In this document: positions 10,770 through 64,000 of the stretch, piece by piece
Layout of the letters: each line of letters opens with the position of its first letter
How positions within the stretch are numbered: the stretch's first letter is position 1
DNA from: Alphaproteobacteria bacterium
Lineage (GTDB): Bacteria > Pseudomonadota > Alphaproteobacteria > UBA7887
NCBI GenBank assembly: GCA_965216755.1
Contig: CBDCGL010000011.1
Coordinates: 2,912,001-2,976,000, forward strand
DNA length: 64,000 nt
Reading direction: 5' to 3'
Position numbers and translations under genes: made by a program
Notes under the pieces: model-generated
What the model was told of the DNA's origin: nothing
What the model saw: the letters and a program-made list of their open reading frames with translations, nothing else
The model's database searches: none

Positions 10770-10772
10770 GGC

Positions 10773-18960: not shown

Positions 18961-18982
18961 GGCGTCGGATCCACAGGGGCGC

Positions 18983-19783: not shown

Positions 19784-19824
19784 TCGTCCTCCGTTGCGCT
19801 GGCATCACCAGCTTCCCACCCATG

Positions 19825-22744: not shown

Positions 22745-22821
22745 TGGCGACCCCGGCAGGATTCGAACCTGCGACCTACAGATTAGGAATCTGCCGCTCT
22801 ATCCAACTGAGCTACGGGGCC
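22745..22821 (-). tRNA. tRNA-Arg(CCT)
   Basis: Reverse complement GGCCCCGTAGCTCAGTTGGATAGAGC-GGCAGATT-CCT-AATCTGT-AGGTCGCAGGTTCGAATCCTGCCGGGGTCG-CCA; full cloverleaf. Confidence 0.97.
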
Positions 22822-33414: not shown

Positions 33415-33423
33415 TCGCCGCGC

Positions 33424-34335
33424 CTAAACCCGCCGCGATTCCAGGCGCGCGAGGGTCATGGTGCTGGCGATGATCACCGCAGCGCCGAGCAGGCTCCACC
33501 AGCCCGGCACTTCGCCAAACAGAAAGAAACCGAAAGCACCGGCAAAAATCAGCCTGGTGTAGTCGAACGGCGCCATCGCAGCGGCGTCGGCCATCGCCAG
33601 GCTGCGAATGGTGAAGGTTTGCGCCAGCACGCCGAGCACGCCGATCGTGCACAACAACGACAGTTCGGTCGGGGTCGGCGACCGCCACACCAGAAACGCG
33701 GGGATCGCGGCCAATATGGTCGAAAAGATGCCGAAATAGACCAGGATCGTGAGCGCGCCTTCGGTACGCGCCAAACGTTTGATGGTGATCTGGGTCAAGG
33801 CCATGAACAGGGCACCCAGCACCGCGATTGCGCCGGCCAGCTCCAGCCCGCCGGTCCCCGGGCGCGCCATGATCAGCACGCCGCCAAAGCCGACCAGGGT
33901 CGCCACGATCCGCGACCTGGTCGCGGCCTCGCCCAGCAAGACCACCGCCAAAAGAATCACAAACAGCGGCTTGGTAAAGCTGATCGCGACCGCGGCCGCC
34001 AAGGGCATGTGGCTGATGGCGTAAAAGGCGCACGCCATGGCGCCGACGCCGAGCCCGGCGCGCAGCACCAGCAAGCCCGGTTGGCGGGTACGCAAGACCG
34101 CGCCCCGACCGCGGACCACAAACGGCAACACGATGAGCAACCCAAACAGACAACGGAAAAAAGCGATTTGAAAACTGTCCAGTCGGCCGCCGAGCGATTT
34201 GACCACCGCCCCCATGCAGGAAAAGGTCACGGTCGCCAGCAGCATCCACAAGGCCCCGTGCACATTTGCCGACAGCCGCGCGACGGGCGCGACGGGCGCC
34301 GTGTCAGCCGAAGCTGCGTCGGCGGGGACGGTCAT
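33424..34335 (-). CDS. DMT/EamA family transporter
   Basis: About 10 hydrophobic segments; FFR, F..PLF...A...LGE, APFDY.RL. Confidence 0.88.
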   Translation of the reverse strand: MTVPADAASADTAPVAPVARLSANVHGALWMLLATVTFSCMGAVVKSLGGRLDSFQIAFFRCLFGLLIVLPFVVRGRGAVLRTRQPGLLVLRAGLGVGAMACAFYAISHMPLAAAVAISFTKPLFVILLAVVLLGEAATRSRIVATLVGFGGVLIMARPGTGGLELAGAIAVLGALFMALTQITIKRLARTEGALTILVYFGIFSTILAAIPAFLVWRSPTPTELSLLCTIGVLGVLAQTFTIRSLAMADAAAMAPFDYTRLIFAGAFGFFLFGEVPGWWSLLGAAVIIASTMTLARLESRRV

Positions 34336-44418: not shown

Positions 44419-44494
<76 letters not shown>

Positions 44495-47135: not shown

Positions 47136-47588
47136 ATGATTGCACTAACAGTTAATGCGACGGCGCACACGGTCGACGTGGCGCCGGATACCCCGCTGCT
47201 GTGGGTGTTGAGAGAACAACTGGGCCTGACCGGAACCAAATATGGCTGTGGAATCGGGGAGTGCGGTGCCTGCAATGTTCACATGAACGGCGAACTGATC
47301 AAGTCGTGCCAAACGTCAATTGGCAAGGCTGCCGGCGCCGACATCACCACGATCGAGGGCTTGGGTAGCGACGGTCTGCACCCCGTTCAGCAGGCGTTTA
47401 TTACAGAGAATGTCACCCAATGCGGCTATTGCATTCCGGGTCAAATCATGACCATCGCCATGATGCTGTATAGCAACCCTGAGCCGACGGATCAGGAGAT
47501 CGATGTTGCTTTGAAAGAAAACTATTGCCGCTGCGGGGCGTACACGCGGATCCGCAAGGCCGTCCACCGTGCCGCTGGTGCGGTTTGA
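47136..47588 (+). CDS. iorA: isoquinoline 1-oxidoreductase alpha-type (2Fe-2S) subunit
   Basis: GTKYGCGIGECGAC..C and QCGYC..CRC motifs. Confidence 0.9.
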   Translation: MIALTVNATAHTVDVAPDTPLLWVLREQLGLTGTKYGCGIGECGACNVHMNGELIKSCQTSIGKAAGADITTIEGLGSDGLHPVQQAFITENVTQCGYCIPGQIMTIAMMLYSNPEPTDQEIDVALKENYCRCGAYTRIRKAVHRAAGAV

Positions 47589-47604
47589 CGAACGGGAGGC
47601 ACAA

Positions 47605-49839: not shown

Positions 49840-49987
49840 TCGGGCGATTCCGGGCTGGGTCACCCGATCCCGGCCCGGACCAAGCTTGTTGTCTGACCAA
49901 ATATCCACCTGGTTGAATGGATTAGGCCTATGTCGTACGATTGAAAACCTGAATAGATCCGGCGTTGAAGCGAAACGGTGCGCCGAT

Positions 49988-51883
49988 ATGGTTGAGCCGA
50001 ACGTCAATCGCAAACTGGCGGCAATACTGAGCGCCGACGTCGTCGGCTATTCACGGTTGATGCATGACGACGAGCCGGCAACGGTCGCGTTGTTGAAAGA
50101 TTATCGGGCGGCGGTCGGGCGGGTGATCGAACGCCGCAAGGGCCGGGTAGTCAACGCGCCCGGCGATTCAATCCTCGCCGAATTCCCAAGTGCTGTCGAA
50201 GCCGTGCAAGCGGCTGTCGAAATCCAGCAAAGCGTCCAAGGCCGCAATGTGGAGCTGCCGGAAGATCGACGCATGGCGTTCCGCATTGGCGTCAATCTCG
50301 GTGATGTCATTGAAGAAGACGACGGCACCATCTATGGCGACGGCGTCAATATTGCCGCGCGCATGGAAGCGCTGGCTGATGCTGGCGGCATCTGCATTGC
50401 CAGCACGGTCTACGACGCGGTCGAAGGCAAGCTTGATTGCGGCTTCGACTTCCTCGGCGAACGGCAGGTTAAAAACATTGCCAAGCCGATCAACGTGTAT
50501 CGGGTGCGCGGCGAAGCATCGGCTACGCCGCCGCACCCAAAAAATCCGAAGCGTCGCCGCGCCCTGATCGGTGCTCTTGGTGCGGGGGCCGCATTCCTGA
50601 TTGTGGCAGCCGGGGCATGGTGGTGGATCGCGCGCGAACCGGCACCGCATCCACTAACAACAGCCGCAACTTTGCCAGCCGGTCCATCGATTGCCGTACT
50701 ACCGTTCACTAATCTAAGCGGCGGCCACGACAACGAAAGATTCAGCGACGGGTTGACCGAGTCGATCATCTCTGGATTTTCAAAATTCGATTCGTTCATG
50801 ATCGTCGCACGCAACTCGACCTTCCAATATAAGGGCAAGTCCGTCGATGTTCGCGAGGTCGGCGCGGCGCTCAATGTCCGTTATGTTTTGGAGGGCAGCG
50901 TCCAGCGCTCCGGGGACCGGCTTCGCGTCAGTGCCCAAGCACTTGACGCCGGGAACGGCGATCATTTGTGGTCGGAAACCTATGATCGCGACGTGACAGC
51001 TGCCACGATTCTTGACTTCCAGGACGATATTACAGCGCACGTGGTCAGCAGCCTGGCATCATACGAGGCACCCTTGTGGCAAGCGGAGATCAGAAAGATG
51101 GGTGCCACGAATGCGCGCGATCAAGATAGCTACGGCTGCATACTTCTGTCTCATGTCTTTTTTAATAACTTCACGGGAGATGACCACGAGAGAGCTCGAA
51201 ACTGCCTCGAACAAGCCGTCCAACGAACGCCAACCTATGCGCCCGCATGGATTGAATTGGCATGGATTTACATCACGGAGTACAGATACCAATTCAACCT
51301 GCGCCCCGAGCCGTTGGAGCGTGCTCTCGCCGCTGCTCAACATGCATTGGAGTTGAATCCACAAAACTATTTCGTCTCCTATGGATTAGCGATGATCCAT
51401 TTCAACCGCGAACAAGAGCTCGACTCCTTTTATGCTTTGGCCGAGAAAGCGTTGGACCTTAATCCGTTCGACGCCACCATGATCGCCGAGTTCGGCGCGT
51501 TCATGGCGTATACTGGTGATTGGGACCGGGGCGCAGCGCTGGGACGGAAAGCCATCGCACTCGCGCCGGCTGGTTGGATGTATACAACACTGGCTCTCGA
51601 TCACTATCGCAAGGGTGAATATCGCCAAGCGCTTATTGAGGGCCAAAAGATCAACTTGCCCGAAAGCAATTTCGCCAACGCATTGTTGGCCGCTATCTAT
51701 GGCAAGCTAGGCGACAAAGAAAAGGCGTCTGTTCATCTCAAACGTGTCCTGGCGGTCCAACCGGGATTTGCCGCGGCACCGGGTAGCCTATTCTTGACGC
51801 GTCGCATGACCGAAGATCTCGTCGACTCGCTCATGGACGGCCTGCGCAAAGCGGGGTTGGACGAACTTCGCCCAGCTAATTAG
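49988..51883 (+). CDS. class III adenylate/guanylate cyclase with TM, TolB_N-like and TPR domains
   Basis: RKLAAILSADVVGYS, PGD, YGDGVNIAARM; TM ending WWW; SIAVLPF, YVLEGSV; TPR repeats. Confidence 0.9.
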   Translation: MVEPNVNRKLAAILSADVVGYSRLMHDDEPATVALLKDYRAAVGRVIERRKGRVVNAPGDSILAEFPSAVEAVQAAVEIQQSVQGRNVELPEDRRMAFRIGVNLGDVIEEDDGTIYGDGVNIAARMEALADAGGICIASTVYDAVEGKLDCGFDFLGERQVKNIAKPINVYRVRGEASATPPHPKNPKRRRALIGALGAGAAFLIVAAGAWWWIAREPAPHPLTTAATLPAGPSIAVLPFTNLSGGHDNERFSDGLTESIISGFSKFDSFMIVARNSTFQYKGKSVDVREVGAALNVRYVLEGSVQRSGDRLRVSAQALDAGNGDHLWSETYDRDVTAATILDFQDDITAHVVSSLASYEAPLWQAEIRKMGATNARDQDSYGCILLSHVFFNNFTGDDHERARNCLEQAVQRTPTYAPAWIELAWIYITEYRYQFNLRPEPLERALAAAQHALELNPQNYFVSYGLAMIHFNREQELDSFYALAEKALDLNPFDATMIAEFGAFMAYTGDWDRGAALGRKAIALAPAGWMYTTLALDHYRKGEYRQALIEGQKINLPESNFANALLAAIYGKLGDKEKASVHLKRVLAVQPGFAAAPGSLFLTRRMTEDLVDSLMDGLRKAGLDELRPAN

Positions 51884-52866: not shown

Positions 52867-53646
52867 ATGGATCTCGGCATCGTCGGCCGCAAGGCCATTG
52901 TGTGTGCATCCAGCAAGGGGCTGGGCCGCGCCTGTGCCATGTCGCTTGCGCGCGAAGGGGTGGATCTTGTCATCAATGCGCGCAGCGCCGAAACATTAGA
53001 GCAGACGGCCGAAGATATCCGTCGCGAAACCGGGGTGACCGTGACCGCGGTCGCCTGTGACATCACCACACCGGCGGGACAAGATCAGCTTCTCGCCGCG
53101 TGTCCCGCGCCCGATATTTTGATCAACAATGCGGGTGGCCCGCCGCCCGGCGATTTTCGCGATTGGGCCCGCGCCGATTGGATTGCGGCCGTGACATCCA
53201 ACATGCTGACGCCGATCGAACTGATGAAGGCGACCGTCGATGGCATGATGGGCCGGGGCTTCGGGCGTATCGTCAACATCACCTCGGCCTCGACCAAGCA
53301 CCCGATCCCCGATCTCGGCATGTCGAACGGGGCGCGCACCGGTTTGGCTGGTTTTGTCGCCGGTCTCGCGCGCGAAACGGTGCGTCGCAATGTGACGATT
53401 AATTGCCTGTTGCCGGGGCCGTTCGTGACCGACCGCATGCGCCAGCACATGACCTACACGGCGCGCCAGCGCGGCCAGGACTTCCAGACATTTGCCGCGC
53501 AAGCGGCGGAACGCAATCCGTCCGGTCGGCTCGGCGACCCCGCGGAATTTGGCGATGCCTGCGCGTTCTTGTGTGCGGCCCAAATGGGCTACGTCACGGG
53601 ACAGCACCTTCTGATGGACGGCGGCAGCTTCCCCGGCACGTTCTAG
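52867..53646 (+). CDS. SDR family oxidoreductase
   Basis: ASSKGLG, NNAGGPP, GRIVNITS; atypical SNGAR in place of YxxxK. Confidence 0.9.
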   Translation: MDLGIVGRKAIVCASSKGLGRACAMSLAREGVDLVINARSAETLEQTAEDIRRETGVTVTAVACDITTPAGQDQLLAACPAPDILINNAGGPPPGDFRDWARADWIAAVTSNMLTPIELMKATVDGMMGRGFGRIVNITSASTKHPIPDLGMSNGARTGLAGFVAGLARETVRRNVTINCLLPGPFVTDRMRQHMTYTARQRGQDFQTFAAQAAERNPSGRLGDPAEFGDACAFLCAAQMGYVTGQHLLMDGGSFPGTF

Positions 53647-53872
53647 ATCAACCTTCGATCGGACGGATCCGTTTGAACAAATATACGTTGATCGCTATCA
53701 CACCGCTGGCATATGAAAGACGCCGCCGCGCCAGCCCTCGCCGTGTTTTCTTGACCAGGCGCACGATACAAAATGTGCAGCCGGCGACGGCCGAACCGCA
53801 CACATTGGTCAGAATGTCTTGCCAAGTAATGATGTCGCGCGCGCGCGGATCCGGGGACGGAATCGATCGCGA

Positions 53873-54340
53873 TCAATACTTCGCGTGATCCATGTCATAG
53901 CAACAATCGGTTTCGCCCCACGTTGGCGCGCATGATGGCGCCGACACCGTGCCGTCAGCACAATCAAGTTTGGCCGAACAGGTGACGTCGGCCACAAACC
54001 GCGTACCCGCCGCGATCCGCCGCTTCTCGGTCTCGACACCCAGTTCACCGACCGCGCCGTGGCCTTCTGCCGATCGATAGCACGCGAGAAAACGTTCATA
54101 AGCTGTCACGCCGACGGTCGTGTCAATGCGGCCGTCGCCAATGTCAGGCGTGCCAGCCGCGGCGCTCCATTCCTGCAGGACGCAACTGTCCGGCGGCGGC
54201 GCGCCCTGTGCGCTCTCAAGCGCGGCCGTTTCGACGACGTTTTGCCAACCGTCCGCTGGGCTGCAATTGTCTTGGGCCCAAACAGAACCCGTCAAAACAA
54301 ACATCAACGCGCCGGCAAGCGCGGGCATCACAAGCTGCAT
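53873..54340 (-). CDS. hypothetical secreted 8-Cys protein
   Basis: GAGGAG RBS before ATG 54340; signal peptide MQLVMPALAGALMFVLTGSVWA; 8 Cys including terminal DCCY. Confidence 0.7.
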   Translation of the reverse strand: MQLVMPALAGALMFVLTGSVWAQDNCSPADGWQNVVETAALESAQGAPPPDSCVLQEWSAAAGTPDIGDGRIDTTVGVTAYERFLACYRSAEGHGAVGELGVETEKRRIAAGTRFVADVTCSAKLDCADGTVSAPSCAPTWGETDCCYDMDHAKY

Positions 54341-54493
54341 GGGGATGGTCTCCTCGGCCGTGTGCAAAAACCGCTTTTTGTCTGTGGATAAGTCTAGCGC
54401 GCCCGGCATTCGCTGTCGAGGCGGTGTCGGTCGCTCTGGATCCGCGCTCGCGCATTCGATAACGTGGCGTCGGTGAGCGCGAGGGATTGCAGC

Positions 54494-56797
54494 ATGCAGA
54501 AGATTTTGGGCCGGTGCGCGGCCGCCATTGTGGTGGCCGCAACGCTGTTGGCGACAGGGTCGATTGTTTCCGTAGGCCAACTCCAAGCGCAGGACGCTGT
54601 TCCAACGCTTTTGGCGCCGAAGCCGACGGACTCGCAAGCGCCGGCGGCGGATACGGCGCCGACAGCCGGGCCCAATCTCGAAACCTATCTGGACGACGCC
54701 CTTTTGGCGATGGTGTACCCCGACGCCGATCGCGTCGGGCCGGTTGAAGGCGAACCGCCGGCCGCGGCGGTTTACAAGGGGGATGACCTTGTCGGCTATG
54801 TGTTCGAGCAATATGACGTGGTGCAAGGGGTCGGATATTCCAAACGCCCTTTTCACATGGTCATCGGCCTCGATTTGAGCGGCCATCTGACCGGCGCGCG
54901 ATTGGCCATGCATGTCGAGCCGATCGCCATTCTTGGTCGCACGGATGACGACTTCCACAAATATGTTGAGCAATTTGCTGGCATAGATATCCGCCGCGGT
55001 GTCAGCGTCATGCTGGATCTTTCCGGCTCGGCGCTGGAAGGCGACAAATTTGCCATGCGTGGTTCGGCGGGCGACGTCTCCAAGTTGACCCCTGTCGATG
55101 CCGTCTCACGCACGACCACCAGCTCGATCCTGTTCAGCGATTCAATCGTGCGCAGCGCGCGGATTATCGCGCGGACGCGCGGCATCGCGTTGGATGCGCG
55201 CGATTTGGGCCAACGGCTGGACATGGAAAGTTTCACTCCGATGCCATGGGTGGCGCTGATCGACGACGGCGCGCTCGCCCATTTGCGCCTGACGATCGCC
55301 GATGTTGCCGCGGCGTTCGCGGCCTTGCCCGACGACGCCAAGGCGCCGCGCAAGGTGCGCCTGTCGCCCGACGACGAGATCTTTGTCGATCTGTACGCGG
55401 CGGTCATTTCACCAGCCGGGATCGGGGTCAATTTGCTCGGCCGCACGTGGTACGACCAGTACATCTCCGGTCGCAATATCGAAGACGTGATTTTGTTCGT
55501 TGCCACCAAGGGTACGTATCGGTTCCACGGCGATGATCCGGCCGATGCCGCCCAGTTCTCGCGGTTGCGGCTCTTTCAAGGCGATACAGAAATCGCGTTC
55601 GGTCCGTCTTTGATGAAAACATTGCCATTTCATCACGCGACCGAAGCCCCGGACCTGGACGAAATCGGCTTGTTCTTTTTCTCCGGCGATGCGGCCCTCG
55701 ATCCAACACGTCCATGGCGTCTGGAGCTTGCCGTGGATGGCGACGGCGACACGCCGGCGCAAGCGATTTTCCCGGTCGACTACACATTGCCCGAGCGGTT
55801 CATATTGGCCCAACCAGAGGTCGAGTCACCAATCGACGCGGCGACCGATGCCATGGTGGCGGACGACGCGTCGATCGGCATCGATTGGCGCCAGTCTTGG
55901 ACCAATCAATCACGCAATATTGTGCTGTTGCTGGTGACGCTCGGTGTGCTCGTGGTGCTGTTGTCGCTGCAAGATCAGATCGCGCGCCGGCGCCGCCTGC
56001 ATCGTTGGCTGCGGATCGGGTTCCTGGCGTGGATTCTGATCTGGTTGGGCTGGTATGCGGGCGCGCAAGTGACCGTGATCAATCTTCTCAACATCGCGCA
56101 ATCAATCGTCTTTGATTTCGACTGGGCGTTTTTCATGGTCGAGCCGCTGATCTTCATCATCACGGCATTTGTCGCGCTGGGTTTGTTCTTTTGGGGGCGT
56201 GCGATCTTTTGTGGCTGGCTCTGTCCGTTTGGCGCGTTGCAGGAATTGCTGAACAACATTGCGACCGCGTTGCGCGTGCCGCAGTGGCGCATTCCAGAAG
56301 GGCTGCATCAACGCGCCATCGCGATCAAATATGTGGCGGTTCTGGCGTTGCTGGGGCTGACATTCTATTCGTTCGATCTGGCCATCATGGGCAGCAATAT
56401 CGAACCATTCAAGGCAGCCATCATCTTTCGTTTCGATGCACCGCTCGCCGCCGTCGCCTATGCCATGATTTTGTTGGTGTGTGGTTTGTTTGTTGAACGC
56501 GCCTATTGTCGCTTTCTTTGTCCGTTGGGTGCCGGTCTGGCGATCTTGGGTCGCGTGCGCATGTTCAATTGGCTCAAGCGTCGCCCTGAGTGCGGCAATC
56601 CGTGCCGCCGTTGTGAACGGGTTTGTCCGACCGGCGCCATTGGCCGCAGTGGCGCTATCGATATGAACGAATGTTTTTATTGCTTGGACTGTCAAGTCAC
56701 CTATTACGACAGTCATGAATGTCCGCCATTGGCGGCGCGCCGCAAGTCTGATCGCGCGCCACTCCAGGGGGCGCCGGTGCCGGCCGCGGCCGAATAG
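54494..56797 (+). CDS. NosR/NirI-like membrane protein (FMN-binding-like periplasmic domain + FeS), copy 1
   Basis: Signal peptide; GYS..P..H.EPI; FCGWLCPFGALQE; YCRFLCPLG; CGNPCRRCERVCP; CFYCLDC..CPP. Confidence 0.85.
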   Translation: MQKILGRCAAAIVVAATLLATGSIVSVGQLQAQDAVPTLLAPKPTDSQAPAADTAPTAGPNLETYLDDALLAMVYPDADRVGPVEGEPPAAAVYKGDDLVGYVFEQYDVVQGVGYSKRPFHMVIGLDLSGHLTGARLAMHVEPIAILGRTDDDFHKYVEQFAGIDIRRGVSVMLDLSGSALEGDKFAMRGSAGDVSKLTPVDAVSRTTTSSILFSDSIVRSARIIARTRGIALDARDLGQRLDMESFTPMPWVALIDDGALAHLRLTIADVAAAFAALPDDAKAPRKVRLSPDDEIFVDLYAAVISPAGIGVNLLGRTWYDQYISGRNIEDVILFVATKGTYRFHGDDPADAAQFSRLRLFQGDTEIAFGPSLMKTLPFHHATEAPDLDEIGLFFFSGDAALDPTRPWRLELAVDGDGDTPAQAIFPVDYTLPERFILAQPEVESPIDAATDAMVADDASIGIDWRQSWTNQSRNIVLLLVTLGVLVVLLSLQDQIARRRRLHRWLRIGFLAWILIWLGWYAGAQVTVINLLNIAQSIVFDFDWAFFMVEPLIFIITAFVALGLFFWGRAIFCGWLCPFGALQELLNNIATALRVPQWRIPEGLHQRAIAIKYVAVLALLGLTFYSFDLAIMGSNIEPFKAAIIFRFDAPLAAVAYAMILLVCGLFVERAYCRFLCPLGAGLAILGRVRMFNWLKRRPECGNPCRRCERVCPTGAIGRSGAIDMNECFYCLDCQVTYYDSHECPPLAARRKSDRAPLQGAPVPAAAE

Positions 56798-56816
56798 GGG
56801 CGACCGCCACAGCGCG

Positions 56817-56859
56817 AAAAAGTGCCGCCGGGCGGCAAGGTTCAGCCTTACCCGGCGGC
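56817..56859 (-). terminator. intrinsic terminator between convergent genes
   Basis: GCCGCCGGG...CCCGGCGGC stem followed by ACTTTTT on the minus strand. Confidence 0.6.
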
Positions 56860-56878
56860 GTATGCGTATATAGGGTTG

Positions 56879-57409
56879 CTACTCTTTGAAGACGTGAAGA
56901 TCGACCGGGCCGAAGACTTCACTCTCGCGACGCCCCGGCAGCTCCGGATATTCCGCCCAGGTGCGGCTTTGGAAATCGGCCGGCAGAGATTCCGCCACAT
57001 CCGAATACTGCACTTTGACCTTGAAGCGTATTTGGTTCATGGCCTTCGGATCATCCGTGCTGATGCAAGCCGGACCGTGACCGCCAAAATCGTCGGCGCC
57101 TTCCGTGACGCACCATTCCGGCTGCGGGCTGGCGTCGCTGTCCGGCTGCAGTTTCATAATCACGGACTGGCCTTCTTCAGGTCCGCCATTCACGTCCAAC
57201 ACGGCGTAGTAGCTATCTGCGACCCAACGCTCTTCCAAATCCTCGGGCACACCTTTGAGGAACAGAGTATAGCTTGGATATAGACCGCCGAAATACAGGC
57301 GCGCTTGTTCGGATGTGATCGAGACCACTTCGCCGGCCGTTGCCGGCAGCGCTGCCAAAGTCGTCCCGATGACGACAGCCGACGCACAAACCGTGCGCAC
57401 TATGTTCAT
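56879..57409 (-). CDS. hypothetical secreted protein
   Basis: GGGAGGG RBS; signal peptide ending PATA; acidic mature region with a Cys pair (EWC...PAC). Confidence 0.7.
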   Translation of the reverse strand: MNIVRTVCASAVVIGTTLAALPATAGEVVSITSEQARLYFGGLYPSYTLFLKGVPEDLEERWVADSYYAVLDVNGGPEEGQSVIMKLQPDSDASPQPEWCVTEGADDFGGHGPACISTDDPKAMNQIRFKVKVQYSDVAESLPADFQSRTWAEYPELPGRRESEVFGPVDLHVFKE

Positions 57410-57464
57410 TTCACCCTCCCAGAAACCATTATTGGGATTTTCATTGCTCATACAACAATCGTCT

Positions 57465-57510
57465 ACAAAACAAAGTGGGGTCGGACGCAACGCGCCCGCC
57501 CCCACCTTTG
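57465..57510 (-). terminator. hairpin/terminator after the amidohydrolase
   Basis: Minus strand CAAAGGTGGGGGCGGGCGC-GTT-GCGTCCGACCCCACTTTG followed by TTTTGT. Confidence 0.55.
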
Positions 57511-57556
57511 CATGGCACTAGCCCACGGGCATTGCCACGATCGTCACCGAACCGCG

Positions 57557-59068
57557 CTAGGCGGTACGGACGTAACCATAGCGCTTGTTGCTCGGGGCAC
57601 CGCCGGCCTCGCGATAATTGTGCGCGAGTTGTGCCAGCTTGTCCTCTGAGAAGTCCGGCAGATCAGGCATGTTGGTGGCGGAATCCATCGCCAAGCCGTA
57701 AATCCGCGCCGAGTTGAGGCCGAAGATCGCCTGTTTGGTCAGGCTGTTCGGGCCACCAAGCGACGGCAGGCCGTATTTCTCTTGCATGTCTTCCGGAACC
57801 TCGAGGCGACGCATGGCTTCGATCTGCCACTGCGGCGAGCCATACCAGACGGTGTCACTACCCCAGACGACATGATCGGCACCCATGCCGTTGACCAGCG
57901 TACCGATGAACGCAGCCGAGAAGCGCGGATGAGCGACCGCCGAATTGGCAAACGTCGATCCCAGCTCAGCGTAAACATTGGACACGCCGAATTCTTCGGG
58001 GATGCGCGCCAAGTCGCTGGCCCATTTGATGTCGCCGGTTTGTTCGAATTCCGCCCACGCTTGGTCCGGCAATTCGAGGAACGGCCGCAGCGCCGCGTGA
58101 TATTGGACGAAGTTCATTTCCGGCCAATCTTGCGCGGCCTTGCCGACGTCCCACACGGTCGCGTATTCCCACACGCCCTTGAACGATTGCTCGTAATCCG
58201 GCGGCAACAGACCTTTATGTGTACAGATCGTGTTGATGCCCGCCTTCAACGCCTTTTCGTAGAAAGGATACATCAGTTCTTCGTCGTCCAGCCGCCACGG
58301 GTATTTCGATGGCGAGAGCGGATCACCGATCGTGTAAGACTTCCACGAATCCGGCTTATATTGCTCGATGGCACGATCGACTTCATCCATCCAGCCATCT
58401 TGACCCGGCGTGATCACCGAATGACCGAGCATGCGGCGTGTGCCGGCGAAATCATTGACCATGTCGCGGGCGGCGACGATCTGATCATTGTACAACAGAT
58501 ACCAGGTCGGATCGTCGAACGGCGCGCCGCTCAACAACGCCATGGTGGTGTCACTGTTGTACCAAAGTTCACGAACATAGTTTTCGAACTTATAGCGGGT
58601 CAGTGACAGACCTTCTTCCTTGAGCTTTGGATTCCAATGCTCGGCGGCGAATTCACCAAGGCCGAGGATCGCCTCATGAGCAAAATCATCGCGCAGGAAG
58701 TGGGTCTGATCGTCAAAAATGAACTGCCCGGCCAACGCATTGGCCCGCTCCAACATCATTTCCGGGTCGCGCGCTTCGGCTTCTGAGACTTGGAACGTGT
58801 TGGTTCCGTAAATCTCTTTCATGGCCAAGAACGCCGTGGCCATACCGCAGCTGGTCTGCAGGAACTGTCGCCGCGACATGCCGAGATGTTTGGCATTCTC
58901 GTCGGCCAATTCTTTTATGCGCGCTTCGACTTGCTTTTGTTTCGGACTTTGCTTCGGCGGCAGATACTCACCGTTCGATACGATTTGTGTCGGCACCGGT
59001 GAATCGAACTCAAGGTTCTCCGCGCCGTCGACCAACCGCCGTTCTCGTTCGCTTAGCCAGTTAGACAC
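57557..59068 (-). CDS. amidohydrolase family protein (Amidohydro_2-like) with internal twin-arginine motif
   Basis: FDDQTH, CTHKG, QYH and WGSD metal-ligand positions; SRRQFL at about residue 65; GGGAGGAG RBS. Confidence 0.85.
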   Translation of the reverse strand: MSNWLSERERRLVDGAENLEFDSPVPTQIVSNGEYLPPKQSPKQKQVEARIKELADENAKHLGMSRRQFLQTSCGMATAFLAMKEIYGTNTFQVSEAEARDPEMMLERANALAGQFIFDDQTHFLRDDFAHEAILGLGEFAAEHWNPKLKEEGLSLTRYKFENYVRELWYNSDTTMALLSGAPFDDPTWYLLYNDQIVAARDMVNDFAGTRRMLGHSVITPGQDGWMDEVDRAIEQYKPDSWKSYTIGDPLSPSKYPWRLDDEELMYPFYEKALKAGINTICTHKGLLPPDYEQSFKGVWEYATVWDVGKAAQDWPEMNFVQYHAALRPFLELPDQAWAEFEQTGDIKWASDLARIPEEFGVSNVYAELGSTFANSAVAHPRFSAAFIGTLVNGMGADHVVWGSDTVWYGSPQWQIEAMRRLEVPEDMQEKYGLPSLGGPNSLTKQAIFGLNSARIYGLAMDSATNMPDLPDFSEDKLAQLAHNYREAGGAPSNKRYGYVRTA

Positions 59069-59343
59069 GTCTTCTCTCCTCCCAAAGTGACATCACAGAT
59101 CATTACTCTTGGACGCTATAAACGCGGCCCACATCGTGCCCTTTTGAAGGTAACGCCGTCAAAACAAAAAAACGGTGGCGCGATGACCGTTTAGCGCGCC
59201 CGGGACTTGCAGAATGGTTCAATATGGTCTGAAAGTGCGCTAGTGTCGCCCACCTGCGCCGGGCGCAGGAACGCATGGCCGTGGCATAGGTGTCTCAATC
59301 GACGCGGCGGTCTTAAGCGGCGACATGAACGTGGGGCGAGGGT

Positions 59344-61566
59344 GTGACGAGGCAAGCGCGTACGGCGCGGCCCGCAAGGTGGGGCGCGCTTTTTGTTGCG
59401 ATGTGCGTGGCCGTGGCCGGACTGGTCATGCCGACCAGTCCCACGGCTTCGGCGCAAGAAGCTGAAGAATCCTATCCGGTGCCGCTGGCCACCTGGACCA
59501 ATCCGACCACCGGCGCCGCATGGCTCAACTTGGATCTGGTCCAAGCACTGTTTCCCGAAGCCGACGATGTGGGCACGATCGAAAACGACCCGCGCGTGGC
59601 GCCGGTATACGCCAACCGCATTCTGCAAGGTTATACATTTATCACCCGCGACATCACGGAATCGCTGGGTTTTTCATCCTTACCTTTTACCATCGCGGTC
59701 GGTTTGCGGCTTGATGGCACCCTGTCGGGCGCCAGGGTCAAAGAGCATCAAGAGCCGATTATCGATCTGTACATGATCGAAAACACGATCCCCGCCTTTG
59801 CCGACCAATATACAGGCATCGATATCCGCACGCCGGTGCGTGTGCGCCTGACCAAAACACAAGACGCCGGCACGGTCGACGGCATCACGTCGGCGACCGT
59901 CAGTGCGGTTTTGTTCAACGAAGCGATTTTGCGCGCGGCGCGGCTGGTGGCATTGGCCAAGGGTATACGTCTGCATGATCAACCTGTGATGGATATCGTC
60001 GGCTATCGCCCAGCCGGATTCGCGTCGCTGGTTGCCGATGGCACTATCGGGCGCATGCGAATCAGCAAGGATGCGGCGCGCACGGCCGGCGTTGCCGCGC
60101 CCGACTTGTCGCATGATGGCATGGGCAACGATCTCTACATCTATGCCCACGAACGCGACAGCGGCGCCAAGTCGCAACCCACTTTTCCTGATGACTTGGT
60201 GATCGATCTTTATGCGGGCCCCGTCATGGTGCCGACCATCGGTCGGAATCTGCTTGGCGACAAATGGTACGATTTGTTCGTCAGTGGGCGCGATCCAAAC
60301 GCGCTCATGCTGGGGATCATGACCATAGGCCCCTATTCGATCGATGGCGAAAAGCATCTTTCCAGTGGTCCGTTCAGTCGCCTACAGCTTCGCCAAGACG
60401 GCAAGGAATGGCCGCTAACCAAGGACAATTATCGTTATTTGGGCTTCCTGCACGGCACGGACAAACCCCGCTTCGCCGAAATCGGGTTGTTCTGGGTGCC
60501 CGTTGAAAGTGGTATAGATCCGGTCCGCCCGTGGACGTTGCGCCTGTTGGTTGAAAGCGCGGTCGATGGCGCATCGGCGCCATTTGAGCTCACCTATGCG
60601 TTGGGCGACGAGTTCATATTGCAGCCGACCGGGATCGACAATGTCGTGTCAGCAGACAATACACCATTGTGGATGTCGGCGTGGCATTCACAAACCACCA
60701 ACATCGCGATATTGGCGGCGCTTCTGATCATCTTAACGATCATCTTGGTCAACATGGATGCGTTGGCGAAAAAGCCGCGTTGGCTGCAGGCGACACGTTT
60801 GTCCTTCTTGGCGGTCGTCCTTGTCTGGATGGGCTGGTATGCGGGCGCTCAACTCACCATCATCAATGTATTGACGTGGGTGCAGTCGCTGGTCACGGGG
60901 ACCGGTTTGACCGTGTTCTTGTCCGACCCCTTAATCGTTGTATTGGTCGGCTTCGTCCTGGTGACGTTCTTCATTTGGGGGCGCGGTATCTTTTGCGGTT
61001 GGCTGTGCCCATTCGGCGCTTTGCAGGAACTGCTCGGCAAGGCCGCCCAGGCGCTTGGGGTGCGCCAAATCAGTTTGAGCAACCGCGCGCATCAATGGCT
61101 TTGGCCGGTCAAATACGTCGTCTTGCTCGGGTTGGTCGGTTTGTCATTCTATTCCTTGACGATCGCCAACACAGCCGCGGAAGTTGAACCGTTTAAGACC
61201 GCCATCTCACTTCGCTTCGCGCGCGACTGGCCATATGTGGTCTATGCGCTGACCTTGCTGGCGATCGGGCTGACCATCGAACGCGCTTTTTGCCGGTTTT
61301 TGTGTCCGCTGGGCGCTGCGATGGCGATCGGTGGTCGGCTGCGCATACCGCGTTTGCTGAAACGACGCGAGGCGTGTGGTTCACCCTGCCAACTGTGTGC
61401 GCGGCGCTGTCCGATCAACGCCATAAAGCCGGATGGCCAAATCAAAATGGACGAGTGCTTTTATTGCCTGGATTGCCAAGTGCTGTATCACGACCAGCAT
61501 GTTTGCCCGCCATTGGTGCAGTCGGCCAGACGTTCGACACGCAAAACCGTGTCCCAGGCCGCTTGA
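59344..61566 (+). CDS. NosR/NirI-like membrane protein, copy 2
   Basis: Signal peptide; GFS..P..HQEPI; VDGITSATVS; FCGWLCPFGALQE; FCRFLCPLG; CGSPCQLCARRCP; CFYCLDC..CPP. Confidence 0.87.
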   Translation: MTRQARTARPARWGALFVAMCVAVAGLVMPTSPTASAQEAEESYPVPLATWTNPTTGAAWLNLDLVQALFPEADDVGTIENDPRVAPVYANRILQGYTFITRDITESLGFSSLPFTIAVGLRLDGTLSGARVKEHQEPIIDLYMIENTIPAFADQYTGIDIRTPVRVRLTKTQDAGTVDGITSATVSAVLFNEAILRAARLVALAKGIRLHDQPVMDIVGYRPAGFASLVADGTIGRMRISKDAARTAGVAAPDLSHDGMGNDLYIYAHERDSGAKSQPTFPDDLVIDLYAGPVMVPTIGRNLLGDKWYDLFVSGRDPNALMLGIMTIGPYSIDGEKHLSSGPFSRLQLRQDGKEWPLTKDNYRYLGFLHGTDKPRFAEIGLFWVPVESGIDPVRPWTLRLLVESAVDGASAPFELTYALGDEFILQPTGIDNVVSADNTPLWMSAWHSQTTNIAILAALLIILTIILVNMDALAKKPRWLQATRLSFLAVVLVWMGWYAGAQLTIINVLTWVQSLVTGTGLTVFLSDPLIVVLVGFVLVTFFIWGRGIFCGWLCPFGALQELLGKAAQALGVRQISLSNRAHQWLWPVKYVVLLGLVGLSFYSLTIANTAAEVEPFKTAISLRFARDWPYVVYALTLLAIGLTIERAFCRFLCPLGAAMAIGGRLRIPRLLKRREACGSPCQLCARRCPINAIKPDGQIKMDECFYCLDCQVLYHDQHVCPPLVQSARRSTRKTVSQAA

Positions 61567-61670
61567 TCGCGGGGTTCTCATGCTTGCCAGCCATGGTGGC
61601 GCGGTTTCGTCGATTCGGATATTAAGGTGACGAAAGCGGTGAGACCGGTCTAAGGGGACAACCGAAGATC

Positions 61671-62441
61671 ATGAACGGACCCGACCATTCGTTGATCTTT
61701 AAGTGGATCCTGGGCAATTCCTTTGCGGGGTTCGGACTTTTTATTGCGTGGCAGCAAGGCTGGCTGTCGCTGGTGGTTGCGAGTGACGCGAGCTATCTAA
61801 GCGTCGTCATGACCGCGATTTTCCTCATTTTTTGGGCCCTGAGCACGTATAAGGCGATCAGCCTGAACCGCGAGGTCAATCGGTTTCGCGCGGGCGCACC
61901 ACACGGGGTCGCCGCCGATTACATGTCCAAAATCCGGCGCGTTGCGGCGCAATCACATGGCGCCAAAGTCGACCAGGCGACGTTCGCCAACAATCTTCAG
62001 GCGCATTTGCTGCTGGCCATACAGCCGGTCAATTTTACCGCGAACTTGCTTATCCTGCTTGGTCTCATCGGCACTGTGATTGGTTTTGTTATCGCCGTTG
62101 GTGGCTTGGGCGACGCGTTGACCGGCGGCGATGGTCCCGAACGCGTGCGCGCCGTCCTCGCCCAAATCGTCAATGGCATGGGCGTGGCGTTGTTCACAAC
62201 CCTGGTCGGCAGCATCCTCGGCGGAATCTGGCTTCAGTTGCACTATCAACTTCTGTTTCGCACCAGCGCCCGTTTGGCACTGGAGATCGTTGAACATGCG
62301 GAGCTCGCAATTCTGCGCGACATGTCGTCGCCAGCCCCGGACACGTTGGCCGAGGCGCGCGACAATTGGTCGGTATCCAGCGCCAAAGCGGCCGGCCAGG
62401 TCGCGGGCGGCGAGCGCATTGCGCGAACTATGGTCCGCTGA
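61671..62441 (+). CDS. MotA/TolQ/ExbB proton-channel family protein
   Basis: LGLIGTVIGF and GMGVALFTTLVG hairpin signature; two N-terminal hydrophobic segments. Confidence 0.85.
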   Translation: MNGPDHSLIFKWILGNSFAGFGLFIAWQQGWLSLVVASDASYLSVVMTAIFLIFWALSTYKAISLNREVNRFRAGAPHGVAADYMSKIRRVAAQSHGAKVDQATFANNLQAHLLLAIQPVNFTANLLILLGLIGTVIGFVIAVGGLGDALTGGDGPERVRAVLAQIVNGMGVALFTTLVGSILGGIWLQLHYQLLFRTSARLALEIVEHAELAILRDMSSPAPDTLAEARDNWSVSSAKAAGQVAGGERIARTMVR

Positions 62442-62451
62442 CTGATCCGCC

Positions 62452-63048
62452 ATGACACCCGTGCTGAATGCCCTCAAGGGCGATACCGAATCAGCCGGCG
62501 TCGCATTTCGCGACGTCTTGTTTCTGATGGTGTTGAGCCTGGTCATCGTCATTTTCCTCATCTCTCTGTTGATCAACCCGCAAGAGGAGGAAGAGGCACC
62601 GCTGCGCACCGATATCGTGATCGAGGCGATGTGGCCGAGTGGCGAGGCGCATGATATCGACCTTTGGGCAATGGGGCCCGACGAGGTTCCGGTCGGATGG
62701 GGACTCAGCTCTGCCGGGCCGTCGCTCAATCTGGAACGCGATGACCGGGGCATCATTAACGACGCCACGACACTGAATTACGAGATCATCACCGTGCGGG
62801 ACAAGACGCCTGGCGAGTATCTTATCAACCTTCACCTTTACAATGAGTTTGAAAGTGTCTTGCCGGTGCCCGTGACGGTTAAAGTCACCGGTCGCGGCGG
62901 CCTCGGCGAGATCTTTTCCGGTGAAGTCAGAATCAATGAACGCAAACAAGAGGTGACGGTTGTCCGGTTTCGGCTCGACGAAGACGGCAATCTGGTCGAA
63001 GACAGCATCAACGACATGTTCAAATGTATTCTCTGTCGAAGGGGATGA
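62452..63048 (+). CDS. single-TM Asp-containing partner (MotB/ExbD-like TM) with YfaP/DUF2135-like periplasmic domain
   Basis: FRDVLF at the TM start; W....DIDLW..PD, LERDD.G, N.E, PGEY.INLH.Y. Confidence 0.7.
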   Translation: MTPVLNALKGDTESAGVAFRDVLFLMVLSLVIVIFLISLLINPQEEEEAPLRTDIVIEAMWPSGEAHDIDLWAMGPDEVPVGWGLSSAGPSLNLERDDRGIINDATTLNYEIITVRDKTPGEYLINLHLYNEFESVLPVPVTVKVTGRGGLGEIFSGEVRINERKQEVTVVRFRLDEDGNLVEDSINDMFKCILCRRG

Positions 63049-63076
63049 CCGGTGACGGTGCGGGCGAGCTGATGTT

Positions 63077-63502
63077 ATGGACGCGACCGTCATTCTGATC
63101 CCGGCACTGTGCGCCGCGGCGGTTACATTTTTACTTGCGATGCTATTTATCGAGTGGCGTCGCCACTGGTTCGGATATTGTTTGCTGTTTGGGCTTGCGA
63201 CGACGGCGCTTGGGCTACCCCTCTACGCCATGCGCGATGTGTTGGGCTTGCCGGATCCGGCCCCGGCCGGTGGGACTTACGAGCTGGTTGGATGGAAGAA
63301 CGACGAGTACGCCGATCAGTCATATCTCTTTGTCGCGCGCGAGGGCGAAGTCGTCCCGCGACATTTCGCGGTTGCATTTGATATGGAAAGCGCTTTGCAG
63401 TTGCATCGCTTGGCGGAAAGCGTGGACAGGCTTGATCGCGTGCGAATCTCCATTGAAAGAGGTCAAAATGGTGACACGATTTTCGTCCCGTCGCGCAAAT
63501 AG
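63077..63502 (+). CDS. small 2-TM hypothetical protein, paralogue A
   Basis: Two N-terminal TMs; LP.YA...LG.P.P and PRHF.V motifs shared with the next gene. Confidence 0.7.
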   Translation: MDATVILIPALCAAAVTFLLAMLFIEWRRHWFGYCLLFGLATTALGLPLYAMRDVLGLPDPAPAGGTYELVGWKNDEYADQSYLFVAREGEVVPRHFAVAFDMESALQLHRLAESVDRLDRVRISIERGQNGDTIFVPSRK

Positions 63503-63589
63503 GCGACCTGGCTTGCGTGAGAACGAGCCTATGACCGTTTTGGTGACGACGCGTGATGGGCGCCGACAGCATCATGCGGTGCGACGACC

Positions 63590-64000
63590 GTGAGTCATCT
63601 CATCCTTTACGGCCTGTTTGCCGCGCTGGTGTGTTTCTTGGTCGTTGCCGTTATGACCCGATCACGGCGGCTGCGGACACTCGCGGTGATGGCCGGCGCG
63701 GTCGCACTTTGGCTGCCGTATTTTGCTTTGACCCATGCGCTCGGCAATCCCAATCCGTTCCCGCCAACCGGGAACTTTCAGCTGTTGGCGTCACGTATAG
63801 ATCAAGCCAATGGCGATTGGTACATCCTGATTGACGGATATCGGCAAGCGGGCCCACCGCGCTCGTTTGTCGTGCCACTCCCCGATGTGCATGAGCGCGA
63901 TCTGCCTCGGGGGTCGCCATACGATCCGGCCGACGTTTTCTTGTCGCGCGGTGCGGGCGGCGCGATGGAATTGTTAGAGGTCGACTATTATCCGCCCGAC
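63590..64000 (+). CDS. small 2-TM hypothetical protein, paralogue B (3'-truncated; absent from the ORF track)
   Basis: GTG 63590 opens MSHLILYGLFAALVCFLVVAV...WLPYFALTHALGNPNPFPPTGNFQLL...WYILI...PPRSFVVP, with no stop before the window end. Confidence 0.7.
   Translation, partial: MSHLILYGLFAALVCFLVVAVMTRSRRLRTLAVMAGAVALWLPYFALTHALGNPNPFPPTGNFQLLASRIDQANGDWYILIDGYRQAGPPRSFVVPLPDVHERDLPRGSPYDPADVFLSRGAGGAMELLEVDYYPPD

Follow-up and report, generated by a model that had tools for sequence, protein, structure and literature searches.

Do the nine genes at positions 53873-64000 of the DNA analysed here (the window, 64,000 nucleotides) form one dedicated envelope system, in which two NosR-like proteins deliver electrons to exported partners and an ion-driven motor lends support, or are they separate units that have come to lie side by side? 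The first alternative was put forward in an earlier note on this DNA, and the gene content, the protein families and the neighbourhoods of homologous genes in other genomes were analysed with regard to it.

Gene content and layout

The nine genes described in the earlier note are all present, at about the places and in the layout given there.

g1, 53873-54340, minus strand: small exported protein of 155 aa (ORF, with a ribosome-binding site before the start)
g2, 54494-56797, plus strand: NosR/NirI-family protein, copy 1 (NosR-like 1), 767 aa
g3, 56879-57409, minus strand: small secreted protein, 176 aa (ORF and signal-like N-terminus)
g4, 57557-59068, minus strand: Amidohydrolase_2-family protein, 503 aa (PF04909)
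g5, 59344-61566, plus strand: NosR/NirI-family protein, copy 2 (NosR-like 2), 740 aa
g6, 61671-62441, plus strand: cassette subunit A, MotA/ExbB/TolQ-like channel protein, 256 aa (PF01618)
g7, 62452-63048, plus strand: cassette subunit B, single transmembrane helix with Asp21, 198 aa
g8, 63077-63502, plus strand: cassette subunit C, two-helix membrane hairpin, 141 aa
g9, 63590 to beyond 64000, plus strand: second C-type subunit, paralogue of g8, cut by the window end

The layout had been said to repeat twice. This is true of the arrangement but not of the sequences: g1 and g3 show no relationship to each other (E 0.51). In the stretch 53000-64000, neither promoter-like sites (2, against a shuffled expectation of 4.4) nor terminator-like sites (16 against 12.8) were judged to exceed expectation.

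The exported protein with eight cysteines, g1, was found as described, with a hydrophobic, signal-peptide-like N-terminus and divergent from NosR-like 1 across an intergenic gap of 153 bp. Its ATG start is preceded by a GAGGAG site, and this 155-aa form was preferred to a 366-aa ORF reaching 54973, which was rejected as an over-extension. No match to g1 was found in Pfam or NCBIfam. Its homologues fall into 14 clusters (39-63% identity), none of them named beyond 'hypothetical protein'; three of the Cys (C53, C87, C121) never vary, and three more (C137, C146, C147) are conserved in at least 90%. The second small protein, g3, lies downstream of the amidohydrolase gene g4 on the same strand (147-bp gap) and likewise has no family match in Pfam or NCBIfam; among 1.84 billion representatives it has 24 relatives at E ≤ 1e-3 and 14 at E ≤ 1e-10. 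Thus far, g1 and g3 are narrow-range exported proteins and, at most, candidate partners of their neighbours.

NosR-like proteins and the amidohydrolase

Both NosR-like proteins align end to end with the NCBIfam NosR model (NF046105), g2 with 574 bits (profile positions 19-679 of 680) and g5 with 610 bits (17-680), but these scores are below the curated cutoff of 1000. The two copies are 38% identical to each other and 35-39% identical to canonical NosR (36-39% for g5 against canonical plasmid NosR). PF12801 is matched by g2 with 52.8 bits (cutoff 22) and by g5 with 63.4 bits, while the match of g5 to FMN_bind (PF04205, 18.7 bits) falls below the cutoff of 22. In g2, an N-terminal signal or anchor leads into a periplasmic domain; the membrane domain that comes next contains two CX3CP motifs, and the C-terminal end is Cys-rich and ferredoxin-like. 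As in NosR/NirI, the FMN-binding-type periplasmic domain has an acceptor Thr column, and this Thr, the two membrane CX3CP motifs and the two C-terminal ferredoxin-like motifs with their eight Cys are kept in both copies; alignment A3 shows no variation at Thr208 of g2, in the flavinylation column, or at any of the 12 motif Cys. The flavinylation motif itself differs, reading SRTT in copy 1 and TSAT in copy 2 as against SGAT in canonical NosR. The two paralogues, each a unit of its own, are most likely flavin and iron-sulphur electron conduits across the membrane.

The genetic setting is also unlike that of NosR. While nosR-nosZ-nosD-F-Y-L-apbE lie in a row in Azospirillum lipoferum, none of nosZ, nosD, nosL and apbE lies near the NosR-like genes, and tblastn with the Azospirillum NosZ, NosD, NosL and ApbE queries gave no match in the window at E ≤ 0.01, in agreement with the reported lack of nosZ, nosD and apbE. 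The reported lack of nirS also stands, based on Pfam scans only, in which none of the 57 window ORFs matched cytochrome d1. Both the absence of ApbE from the window and the altered flavinylation motifs count against reading the NosR-like proteins as flavin conduits.

With neither NosZ nor NirS in view, a different periplasmic partner is likely for the NosR-like proteins, as had been reasoned before. This redox partner would be periplasmic and not NosZ, and the best-documented candidate class is a PQQ alcohol dehydrogenase pathway. The clustering of NapH/NosR-like proteins with PQQ alcohol dehydrogenases is already reported: in the cited passages of Méheust et al. 2021 (eLife, PMC8238504), NapH-like clusters with ExaA are counted in 172 genomes, and electron transfer from the alcohol oxidase is proposed. 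These systems resemble the present one in having a PF12801 membrane iron-sulphur protein, an N-terminal extracytosolic FMN-binding domain and a non-Nos or uncharacterised client. They differ from it in that the clusters were defined by flavinylation genes, whereas the window has no ApbE, and in that the window has no PQQ-dependent dehydrogenase (PQQ-DH); moreover, a MotA/ExbB-like cassette is not mentioned in the cited passages.

The remaining protein, g4, is an amidohydrolase with a twin-arginine motif, as had been described. It starts at a GTG with a GGAGGAGAG Shine-Dalgarno site upstream, is divergent from NosR-like 2 (275-bp gap) and matches PF04909 with 29.6 bits (cutoff 26.4); its match to TAT_signal (PF10518, 14.4 bits) is below the cutoff of 22.7. 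At the N-terminus, ~60 conserved aa precede the SRRQF motif (residues 65-69), which leads into a short hydrophobic segment, and both this extension and the motif are shared with an orthologue at locus L006 (~57-58% identity) and with a homologue on a Sphingobium plasmid (32%; alignment A4). The closest Atlas clusters are labelled 'amidohydrolase family protein' (512-517 aa), and no sequence match was found among solved structures. PF04909 includes lactonases, and g4 could be a periplasmic hydrolase of the PQQ alcohol dehydrogenase pathway.

A motor-like cassette linked to quinoprotein dehydrogenases

The hallmarks of an ion-driven motor that had been pointed out, a MotA-like gene and a partner with an Asp-bearing transmembrane helix, are indeed present. 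Subunit A (g6) matches PF01618 with 31.2 bits (cutoff 22.9), has 221 homologues at E ≤ 1e-3 and contains the invariant motifs LGLIGTV.GF and GM..AL.TTL.G (alignment A1). Subunit B (g7) combines one transmembrane helix, in which F19-R20-D21 is invariant, with a periplasmic beta sandwich on the C-terminal side; its invariant residues (alignment A2, 39 sequences) include D21, D68, D70, W72, R96, D97, D98, G100, D104, N109, E111 and E167. In its AF2 model (pLDDT 86), the periplasmic domain is predicted to be a TerD-like beta sandwich with many invariant Asp, Asn and Glu residues, the top Foldseek matches being TerD-family Ca-binding proteins (E 1.6e-5 to 6e-4, TM-score by target 0.48-0.53; for 2qz7, 3ibz and 2kxt, probability 1.00, E 1.9e-5 to 6e-4 and TM-score by target about 0.5). 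This likeness is at fold level only, as none of the 39 members matches Pfam TerD and the PDB gave no sequence match. While TerD proteins are soluble and cytoplasmic, the domain of g7 is attached to a membrane helix and its predicted location is the periplasm; metal binding is a candidate property only.

Subunit C (g8) is modelled (pLDDT 83) as a two-helix membrane hairpin with a small beta-barrel domain, placed in the periplasm, for which no PDB fold match was found at E ≤ 1e-3. The view of g8 and g9 as paralogous membrane proteins was confirmed (26% identity, E 1e-7); 137 aa of g9 are visible before the window end, its relatives having about 155 aa, and orthologues are found at loci L001, L002, L003, L007 and others. 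Together, g6-g9 constitute a conserved envelope cassette, whose C subunit is duplicated in the window.

The cassette resembles the 5:2 motors ExbB-ExbD, TolQ-TolR and MotA-MotB ('generic ion transporters' in the cited passage of PMC12505986) in the PF01618 match and conserved Thr-bearing helices of A, and in a B gene that lies directly downstream of A and encodes one transmembrane helix with an invariant Asp. It differs from them in the periplasmic domain of B, which is modelled as TerD-like and not as ExbD/TolR-like or OmpA-like, in the constant presence of a third, two-helix subunit, and in that no TonB, TolA or flagellar partner was seen. Among solved structures, A is closest to MotA (8gqy), with an E value of only 7e-4. 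By analogy with these motors, A may form a ring around B, and ions passing the Asp of B would then drive a movement, which the B and C domains might relay to the periplasm. Models of ZorA, from the anti-phage system Zorya, match the channel core of g6 weakly (E 3e-6 over 56 residues), but g6, with its 256 aa, lacks the long ZorA tail, g7-g9 do not match ZorB, ZorC or ZorD, and the neighbours of the cassette are metabolic genes.

Conservation was assessed in 79 genome loci holding relatives of g6. A g7-type partner lies directly downstream of g6 in all 78 informative loci, and a two-helix gene of the g8/g9 type follows it in all of the 75 that are informative on this point. At least 450 stretches confirmed by tblastn were found in species-representative genomes. 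The cassette is, therefore, an autonomous core, widespread and uncharacterised.

In 19 of the 79 loci, a PQQ-DH gene is found no more than about 3.2 kb from the cassette, and in the window's own clade it accompanies the cassette in 10 of 13; the other three (L003, L004 and L011) are contigs of 5,046, 10,469 and 3,070 bp, cut off at the cassette or next to it. In this clade the steady neighbours are a quinoprotein of the PQQ ethanol dehydrogenase type, a PedF-like c-type cytochrome, small uncharacterised proteins and a TPR protein; at L010, one strand carries genes for PQQ-DH, cytochrome c, two uncharacterised proteins, the TPR protein, A, B, C and C. The association recurs in a second cassette subclade, with a PQQ-DH subfamily that is only 28-31% identical. 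The cassette-linked enzymes score about 340 bits against TIGR03075 (cutoff 480), and their closest solved relatives are quinoprotein ethanol dehydrogenases (6zcv, 6zcw). The A subunit of the window nests in the PQQ-linked clade (support 100/100). Against the link, the window's 64 kb encode neither a PQQ-DH nor a cytochrome c nor a TPR protein of the cluster type. In a FastTree phylogeny, the PQQ-DH P0182 (55% identical to that of L006) falls outside a 42-row clade with seven of the eight cassette-linked enzymes, and thus gives no support to the link. In the distant cassette clade, neighbours are unrelated and varied at most loci; therefore, the cassette is not tied to PQQ-DH in general.

One system or neighbouring units

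If the nine genes formed a single system, the NosR-like proteins would keep the amidohydrolase, or g1 and g3, active by electron delivery, and the motor would aid the handling of cofactors or substrates. It is true that each NosR-like gene is tightly divergent from exported-protein genes (gaps of 153 and 275 bp), that g1 and g3 belong to genuine, if small, conserved families, and that a gap of 104 bp, in which no terminator-like site was listed, separates NosR-like 2 from the co-directional cassette downstream. Moreover, at L001 and L007, where a NosR-like gene shares the neighbourhood with a PQQ-DH, it is once more transcribed divergently from genes for exported proteins (DUF1800 and an RR-motif DUF1501), and an amidohydrolase gene is near the cassette in two genomes, those of the window and of L006. 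The genes do not, however, co-occur elsewhere, which the earlier note had named as grounds for refutation. Among the 79 loci, a NosR-like gene adjoins the cassette in three, a g4-type amidohydrolase in one and homologues of g1 or g3 in none, and the cassette stands on its own with other neighbours in 75-78. At L006 the amidohydrolase gene comes directly after the cassette and beside a PQQ-DH, but no NosR-like gene is found within 10 kb; the Sphingobium homologue, with the same RR motif, lies in an acyl-CoA catabolic cluster, and NosR is absent from the 17-kb stretch shown. To our knowledge, PF04909 enzymes are not redox enzymes. For the amidohydrolase or the small exported proteins as clients of the NosR-like proteins, no evidence was found, the conserved neighbour of the cassette being PQQ-DH with cytochrome c. 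A single system is, in our opinion, improbable.

At the other extreme, the NosR-like genes, the amidohydrolase operon and the cassette may have unrelated roles and be juxtaposed by chance, or by a loose functional tie, in a stretch where envelope and redox genes are numerous. The varied neighbours of distant cassettes are consistent with this, as are the scarcity of the NosR-like neighbour, confined to one subclade (L001, L003 and L007), and that of the amidohydrolase. Adjacency of a NosR-like gene and the cassette is known from two independent settings only, which differ in orientation (upstream on the same strand in the window; downstream and convergent in the other lineage). The NosR-like proteins of L003 and L007 are orthologous to neither window copy, sharing only 33-36% identity with copy 1 and 36-37% with copy 2. 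Nevertheless, from general knowledge we judge it unlikely that chance alone placed such genes directly beside one cassette twice independently. NosR-family genes are few per genome. The reported NapH-like/ExaA clustering in 172 genomes (PMC8238504, in the passages cited) also argues against mere juxtaposition, which we regard as rather unlikely.

The cassette could also be an energiser of the ExbB-ExbD type for transport across the outer membrane, for example to supply the quinoprotein with PQQ, or with chelated lanthanide or calcium, by a TonB-dependent route; the C proteins would then be TonB-like couplers. The motifs of A are closest to ExbB/TolQ-type channels, B has an ExbD/TolR-like membrane Asp, and TonB-dependent PQQ uptake is known in Escherichia coli and Pseudomonas aeruginosa from the cited parts of two preprints. 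At L045, and by Pfam at this locus only, a TonB-dependent receptor gene was identified about 5.5 kb away from the cassette; ORF-cluster 32, taken as the same receptor gene, occurs also at L066, L071 and L076. No such receptor was found, however, in the close-clade loci or window ORFs scanned, g7, g8 and g9 match no ExbD or TonB family, and the g8 model shows no TonB-like match, TonB being absent from the 43 Foldseek matches listed. An energiser of this type thus appears very unlikely.

As the cassette sits with a periplasmic alcohol dehydrogenase in related bacteria, the stretch looks like a patchwork. Our reading as a whole, to which we give about an even chance, is that it consists of three neighbouring units, the cassette g6-g9 and two NosR-like units, and is not one dedicated system. 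We read the motor cassette, and not a NosR-amidohydrolase system, as the most novel part of the region. Because the window's clade pairs the cassette with a PQQ quinoprotein, a cytochrome c and a TPR protein, we interpret it as a probable accessory of periplasmic quinoprotein oxidation, whose role may be the handling of the enzyme's calcium or lanthanide, or the assembly of the enzyme.

Gene layout and co-occurrence

The region at 53873-64000 holds nine genes (g1 to g9), the family assignments of which were upheld by Pfam and NCBIfam searches:

g1, 53873-54340, minus strand: small exported-type protein of 155 aa, with a signal-like N-terminus and eight Cys residues; divergent from g2
g2, 54494-56797: NosR-like 1 (copy 1), the divergent partner of g1
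g3, 56879-57409, minus strand: small secreted protein, forming a minus-strand pair with g4
g4, 57557-59068, minus strand: Amidohydrolase_2 protein; the pair of g4 and g3 is divergent from NosR-like 2
g5, 59344-61566: NosR-like 2 (copy 2), followed on the same strand by g6, g7, g8 and g9
g6: MotA/ExbB-like protein (subunit A)
g7: protein with one transmembrane (TM) helix carrying Asp21 (subunit B)
g8: protein of the subunit C type
g9: protein of the subunit C type, cut by the window end

The successive gaps from g5 to g9 are 104, 10, 28 and 87 bp, and the last four genes are referred to here as the cassette. g8 and g9 are distant paralogues, while sequence comparison showed g1 and g3 to be unrelated. 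Promoter and terminator scans of the region gave nothing above chance, and neither tRNA nor Rfam features were found in it. When NosZ, NosD, NosL and ApbE from an Azospirillum plasmid were used as tblastn queries, no match was obtained in the window at E <= 0.01; nirS was likewise not found, as judged by Pfam scans of 57 ORFs only. Because the nine genes are laid out as the earlier note described, with corrected gene starts, the family matches are upheld, and the window contains none of nosZ, nosD, nosL and apbE, the observation as such is confirmed.

Elsewhere in the window, an NnrU-family gene is located at 2953-3546, the G+C content falls to 0.54 at 32001-34000 (vs about 0.60-0.65 around it), and the only RNA genes found are tRNA-Arg(CCT) and tRNA-Ala(CGC), at 22745-22821 and 44419-44494.

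Relatives of the cassette were searched across genomes with an alignment of MotA-like proteins, yielding at least 450 stretches, of which the best 79 loci were kept. A g7 gene lies directly downstream of g6 in all 78 loci with at least 300 bp of downstream sequence, and a gene of the g8/g9 type follows in all 75 loci with at least 450 bp beyond g7. A NosR-like gene, for which NosR-like 2 and Azospirillum NosR were both used as queries and detected the same three loci only, is present in 3 of the 79 (L001, L003 and L007). An orthologue of the amidohydrolase was found in a single locus (L006, 57% identity), and homologues of g1 and g3 in none of the 79. The proposal that all nine genes form a single envelope system, in which the NosR-like proteins would serve the amidohydrolase or the secreted proteins, is not supported by these counts.

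In a maximum-likelihood tree of subunit A (72 rows, eight loci having been excluded for a stop in the match or a short match), the window falls within a clade of 13 rows with a support of 100/100, hereafter the close clade. Since L001, L003 and L007 belong to one subclade of this tree, the adjacency of NosR to the cassette was gained or retained in just two settings.

In two of these loci (L001, 14869-20276; L007, 12016-17354), the divergent partner of the NosR-like gene is a DUF1800 gene; next in order come a DUF1501 gene, whose product has an RR motif close to the N-terminus, a response regulator and a histidine kinase. In L001, the NosR-like gene was matched as two separate pieces (12562-14542), indicative of a frameshift, a break or an assembly error.

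Upstream of the region, at 47136-49839, the gene for a 2Fe-2S small subunit (PF01799) precedes that for a molybdopterin-binding large subunit (PF02738/PF20256), which bears a TAT-like motif. The pair, located 4 kb upstream of g1, is probably another periplasm-facing oxidoreductase. At 49886-51883, the window encodes an adenylate/guanylate-cyclase protein containing TPR repeats. No counterparts of these upstream genes (the TPR protein, the 2Fe-2S/MoCo pair and a 187-aa ORF) were found in the loci, save a homologue of the cyclase-TPR protein in L075 (1652-3319), located about 1.8 kb upstream of a distant-clade cassette and showing 47% identity in the cyclase domain and 26% in the TPR part.

NosR-like proteins and their exported neighbours

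The NosR model NF046105 matches both copies end to end, at profile positions 19-679 (copy 1) and 17-680 (copy 2) of 680, with scores of 574.4 and 609.8 bits respectively, both of which are below the curated cutoff of 1000. The two copies are 38% identical over their whole length, and PF12801 is found in them at 52.8 and 63.4 bits (cutoff 22). An alignment of five NosR-type proteins (both window copies, Azospirillum NosR and the NosR-like proteins of L003 and L007) showed that the flavinylation Thr column (T208 in copy 1) and D202 are invariant in all five; the flavinylation motif is SRTT in copy 1, TSAT in copy 2 and SGAT in canonical NosR. The Pfam FMN_bind model scored below its cutoff for copy 2 (18.7 vs 22) and gave no match for copy 1. 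Two CX3CP motifs and eight C-terminal Cys residues are common to the five proteins, the invariant cysteines being C573, C577, C672, C676, C700, C704, C707, C711, C727, C730, C733 and C743. Among the 30 plasmid matches to NosR-like 2 listed out of 331 records, identities are 36-39%, and several are annotated as NosR or NosR/NirI; the one plasmid region examined (H21) sits in a nos cluster. No solved structure matched NosR-like 2 by sequence.

The sub-cutoff model scores, the kept motifs and the 36-39% identities to plasmid proteins suggest that the window copies are deep paralogues inside the NosR/NirI family. They share with this family the CX3CP motifs and the Cys clusters, but differ from it in their sub-cutoff score and in having no linkage to nosZ or apbE; the NosZ, NosD, NosL and ApbE queries gave no tblastn match at E <= 1e-5 in the 79 loci either. 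Both copies carry the Cys-based cofactor motifs of the family and probably its flavinylation site, and lack its genomic-context feature. In the parts of their survey drawn on here, Méheust et al. (2021; PMC8238504) describe NapH-like proteins as mostly having an N-terminal FMN-binding domain, and count 133 genomes in which they cluster with NirS and 172 in which the cluster partner is the PQQ alcohol dehydrogenase ExaA. Electrons are proposed there to be transferred from the alcohol oxidase, and most such systems are regarded as still unknown.

The amidohydrolase g4 matches PF04909 above the cutoff (29.6 vs 26.4 bits) and the TAT_signal model below it (14.4 vs 22.7 bits). Its RR motif, at residues 66-67, comes after a conserved N-terminal stretch of about 60 aa, and both stretch and motif are common to the homologues from L006 and from a Sphingobium plasmid, the latter located within an acyl-CoA cluster. 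The best match to g4 among plasmid records (30% identity) is in an acyl-CoA cluster, and no solved structure matched g4 by sequence. Export of g4 appears plausible. The genes of this family in the window (57557-59068), in L006 (12344-13852) and in L080 (7965-9455) all encode the RR about 65 residues in, preceded by a conserved NGE..P, which is unusually deep for a TAT signal. The families of g1 (14 homologue clusters) and g3 (24 representatives) are real but narrow, their members being named only 'hypothetical protein'.

A long minus-strand fatty-acid beta-oxidation run (acyl-CoA dehydrogenases, 3-hydroxyacyl-CoA dehydrogenase, thiolase and enoyl-CoA hydratase) occupies 6687-19804 of the window, and parts of it are 61-78% identical to genes flanking the L006 cassette region.

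The cassette, its proteins and its neighbourhood

Subunit A, as represented by g6, matches PF01618 at 31.2 bits (cutoff 22.9) and has conserved channel motifs, with GTV and TT invariant in 25 sequences; it is remote from every solved motor, the best being MotA at E 7e-4. In subunit B, D21 is invariant in 39 of 39 sequences, an invariant F-R-D motif is present at the helix start, and the periplasmic domain contains many invariant Asp, Asn and Glu residues. The AF2 model of B (pLDDT 86) shows a helix at residues 12-41 and a beta sandwich, the best structural matches of which are TerD-family calcium-binding proteins (E 1.6e-5 to 6e-4, TM-score about 0.5). This likeness to the TerD domain is at the fold level of the model; no TerD match was found at the sequence level with Pfam TerD, for which 39 members were scanned, or with PDB sequences. 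A weak match to DUF2135 was given by 7 of the 39 B members (best E 0.0014). Searches of g7 against Pfam and NCBIfam, which include periplasmic domains of the ExbD/TolR or OmpA/MotB type, gave no match, and its plasmid-record matches are to Azospirillum chromids only, the one record examined being unannotated. Subunit C is modelled as a two-helix hairpin with a small beta barrel. A TonB-like role of g8 and g9 was considered and rejected, as the g8 model matched no PDB fold significantly (best E 0.048).

The cassette resembles the 5:2 motors of the MotA/ExbB/TolQ type in that A belongs to PF01618 and the adjoining B gene encodes a single TM helix with a conserved Asp, but differs from them in the modelled periplasmic fold of B, which is nearest to TerD and not of the ExbD/TolR or OmpA/MotB type. 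Identity with the Zorya system (ZorAB) was also rejected, since PADLOC gave only weak ZorA core matches, confined to residues 125-180 of g6 (best E 3.2e-6), and none for g7-g9; the Zorya set of a long ZorA tail, ZorB, and ZorC/D or ZorE was not found. The channel motifs of A, the Asp helix and TerD-like model of B, the model of C and the weak Zorya matches are consistent with a putative motor that would work like those of the ExbB/TolQ/MotA class, distinguished by a B head of a new kind and by a third subunit that is obligatory. Literature searches found no published description of the cassette; a 2025 mBio study (PMC12505986) assigns, in the part consulted, many of the MotA/ExbB homologues without a known function to a 'generic ion transporter' clade.

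A second g7-type gene was observed in L015, L017, L023, L045, L046, L066, L068, L071, L076 and L077, either just upstream of A (first group) or about 3 kb upstream (L045-type loci). In L045, this gene has TPR, DsbA-like and M12-type peptidase genes as neighbours, together with a TonB-dependent receptor.

Pfam searches on 92 ORFs from eight loci showed that the close-clade neighbours of the cassette are a PQQ beta-propeller dehydrogenase, a c-type cytochrome, two or three small unknown proteins and a TPR protein. In 19 of the 79 loci, among them 10 of the 13 of the close clade, tblastn detected a gene for a PQQ-dependent dehydrogenase (PQQ-DH) no more than about 3.2 kb from the cassette; the remaining three close-clade loci are short or cut contigs. 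L010 carries the whole PQQ-DH/cassette set of nine genes on one strand, and in L002 a set of PQQ-DH, cytochrome c and TPR genes comes straight after g9. The close-clade PQQ-DHs belong to the methanol/ethanol family, with quinoprotein ethanol dehydrogenases as their nearest solved relatives, and the cytochrome is similar to PedF. In a second cassette subclade, the linked enzymes are of another PQQ-DH subfamily, only 28-31% identical, and the further neighbours are a cupredoxin, an XoxJ-like binding protein, and TPR or Sel1 proteins. In most loci of the distant clade the neighbours are unrelated, and the cassette is therefore an autonomous unit, for which the quinoprotein link is recurrent but not universal. 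One PQQ-DH, P0182, was considered as a candidate for the genome's own enzyme and set aside; it falls outside the main cassette-linked clade, a position that says nothing on adjacency.

Interpretation and significance

The stretch is best read as a composite, in which two orphan electron conduits of the NosR family, whose exported neighbours are restricted to their lineage, lie beside a conserved three-part ion-motor cassette, for which a periplasmic quinoprotein dehydrogenase cluster appears to be the natural company. A more specific proposal, to which we assign a rather small chance of being correct, is that g6-g9 would be an undescribed class of ion-driven envelope motor, made of an ExbB/TolQ-like ring, an Asp-bearing axle with a TerD-like cation-binding head and a two-helix third subunit. 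Such a motor would serve periplasmic PQQ dehydrogenases, either by loading, exchanging or gating their Ca or lanthanide cofactor or by acting in their assembly, and the orphan NosR-like proteins, as flavo-iron-sulfur proteins, would connect this pathway with the quinone pool of the membrane.

Orphan proteins of the NosR/NapH-like kind are common, and most of them lack an explanation; the position of two of them beside a quinoprotein-linked cassette provides a concrete candidate partner class. If the cassette were only a neighbour, the finding would shrink to ordinary orphan paralogues. Of wider importance is the cassette itself. Its three genes are strictly conserved as a unit in hundreds of genomes, most of them alphaproteobacterial and many marine, and its B and C subunits are outside every described family. 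Should the cassette be ion-driven and act on behalf of periplasmic PQQ dehydrogenases, it would represent a new output for the 5:2 motor family, and would also bear on the maturation or metal supply of these enzymes.
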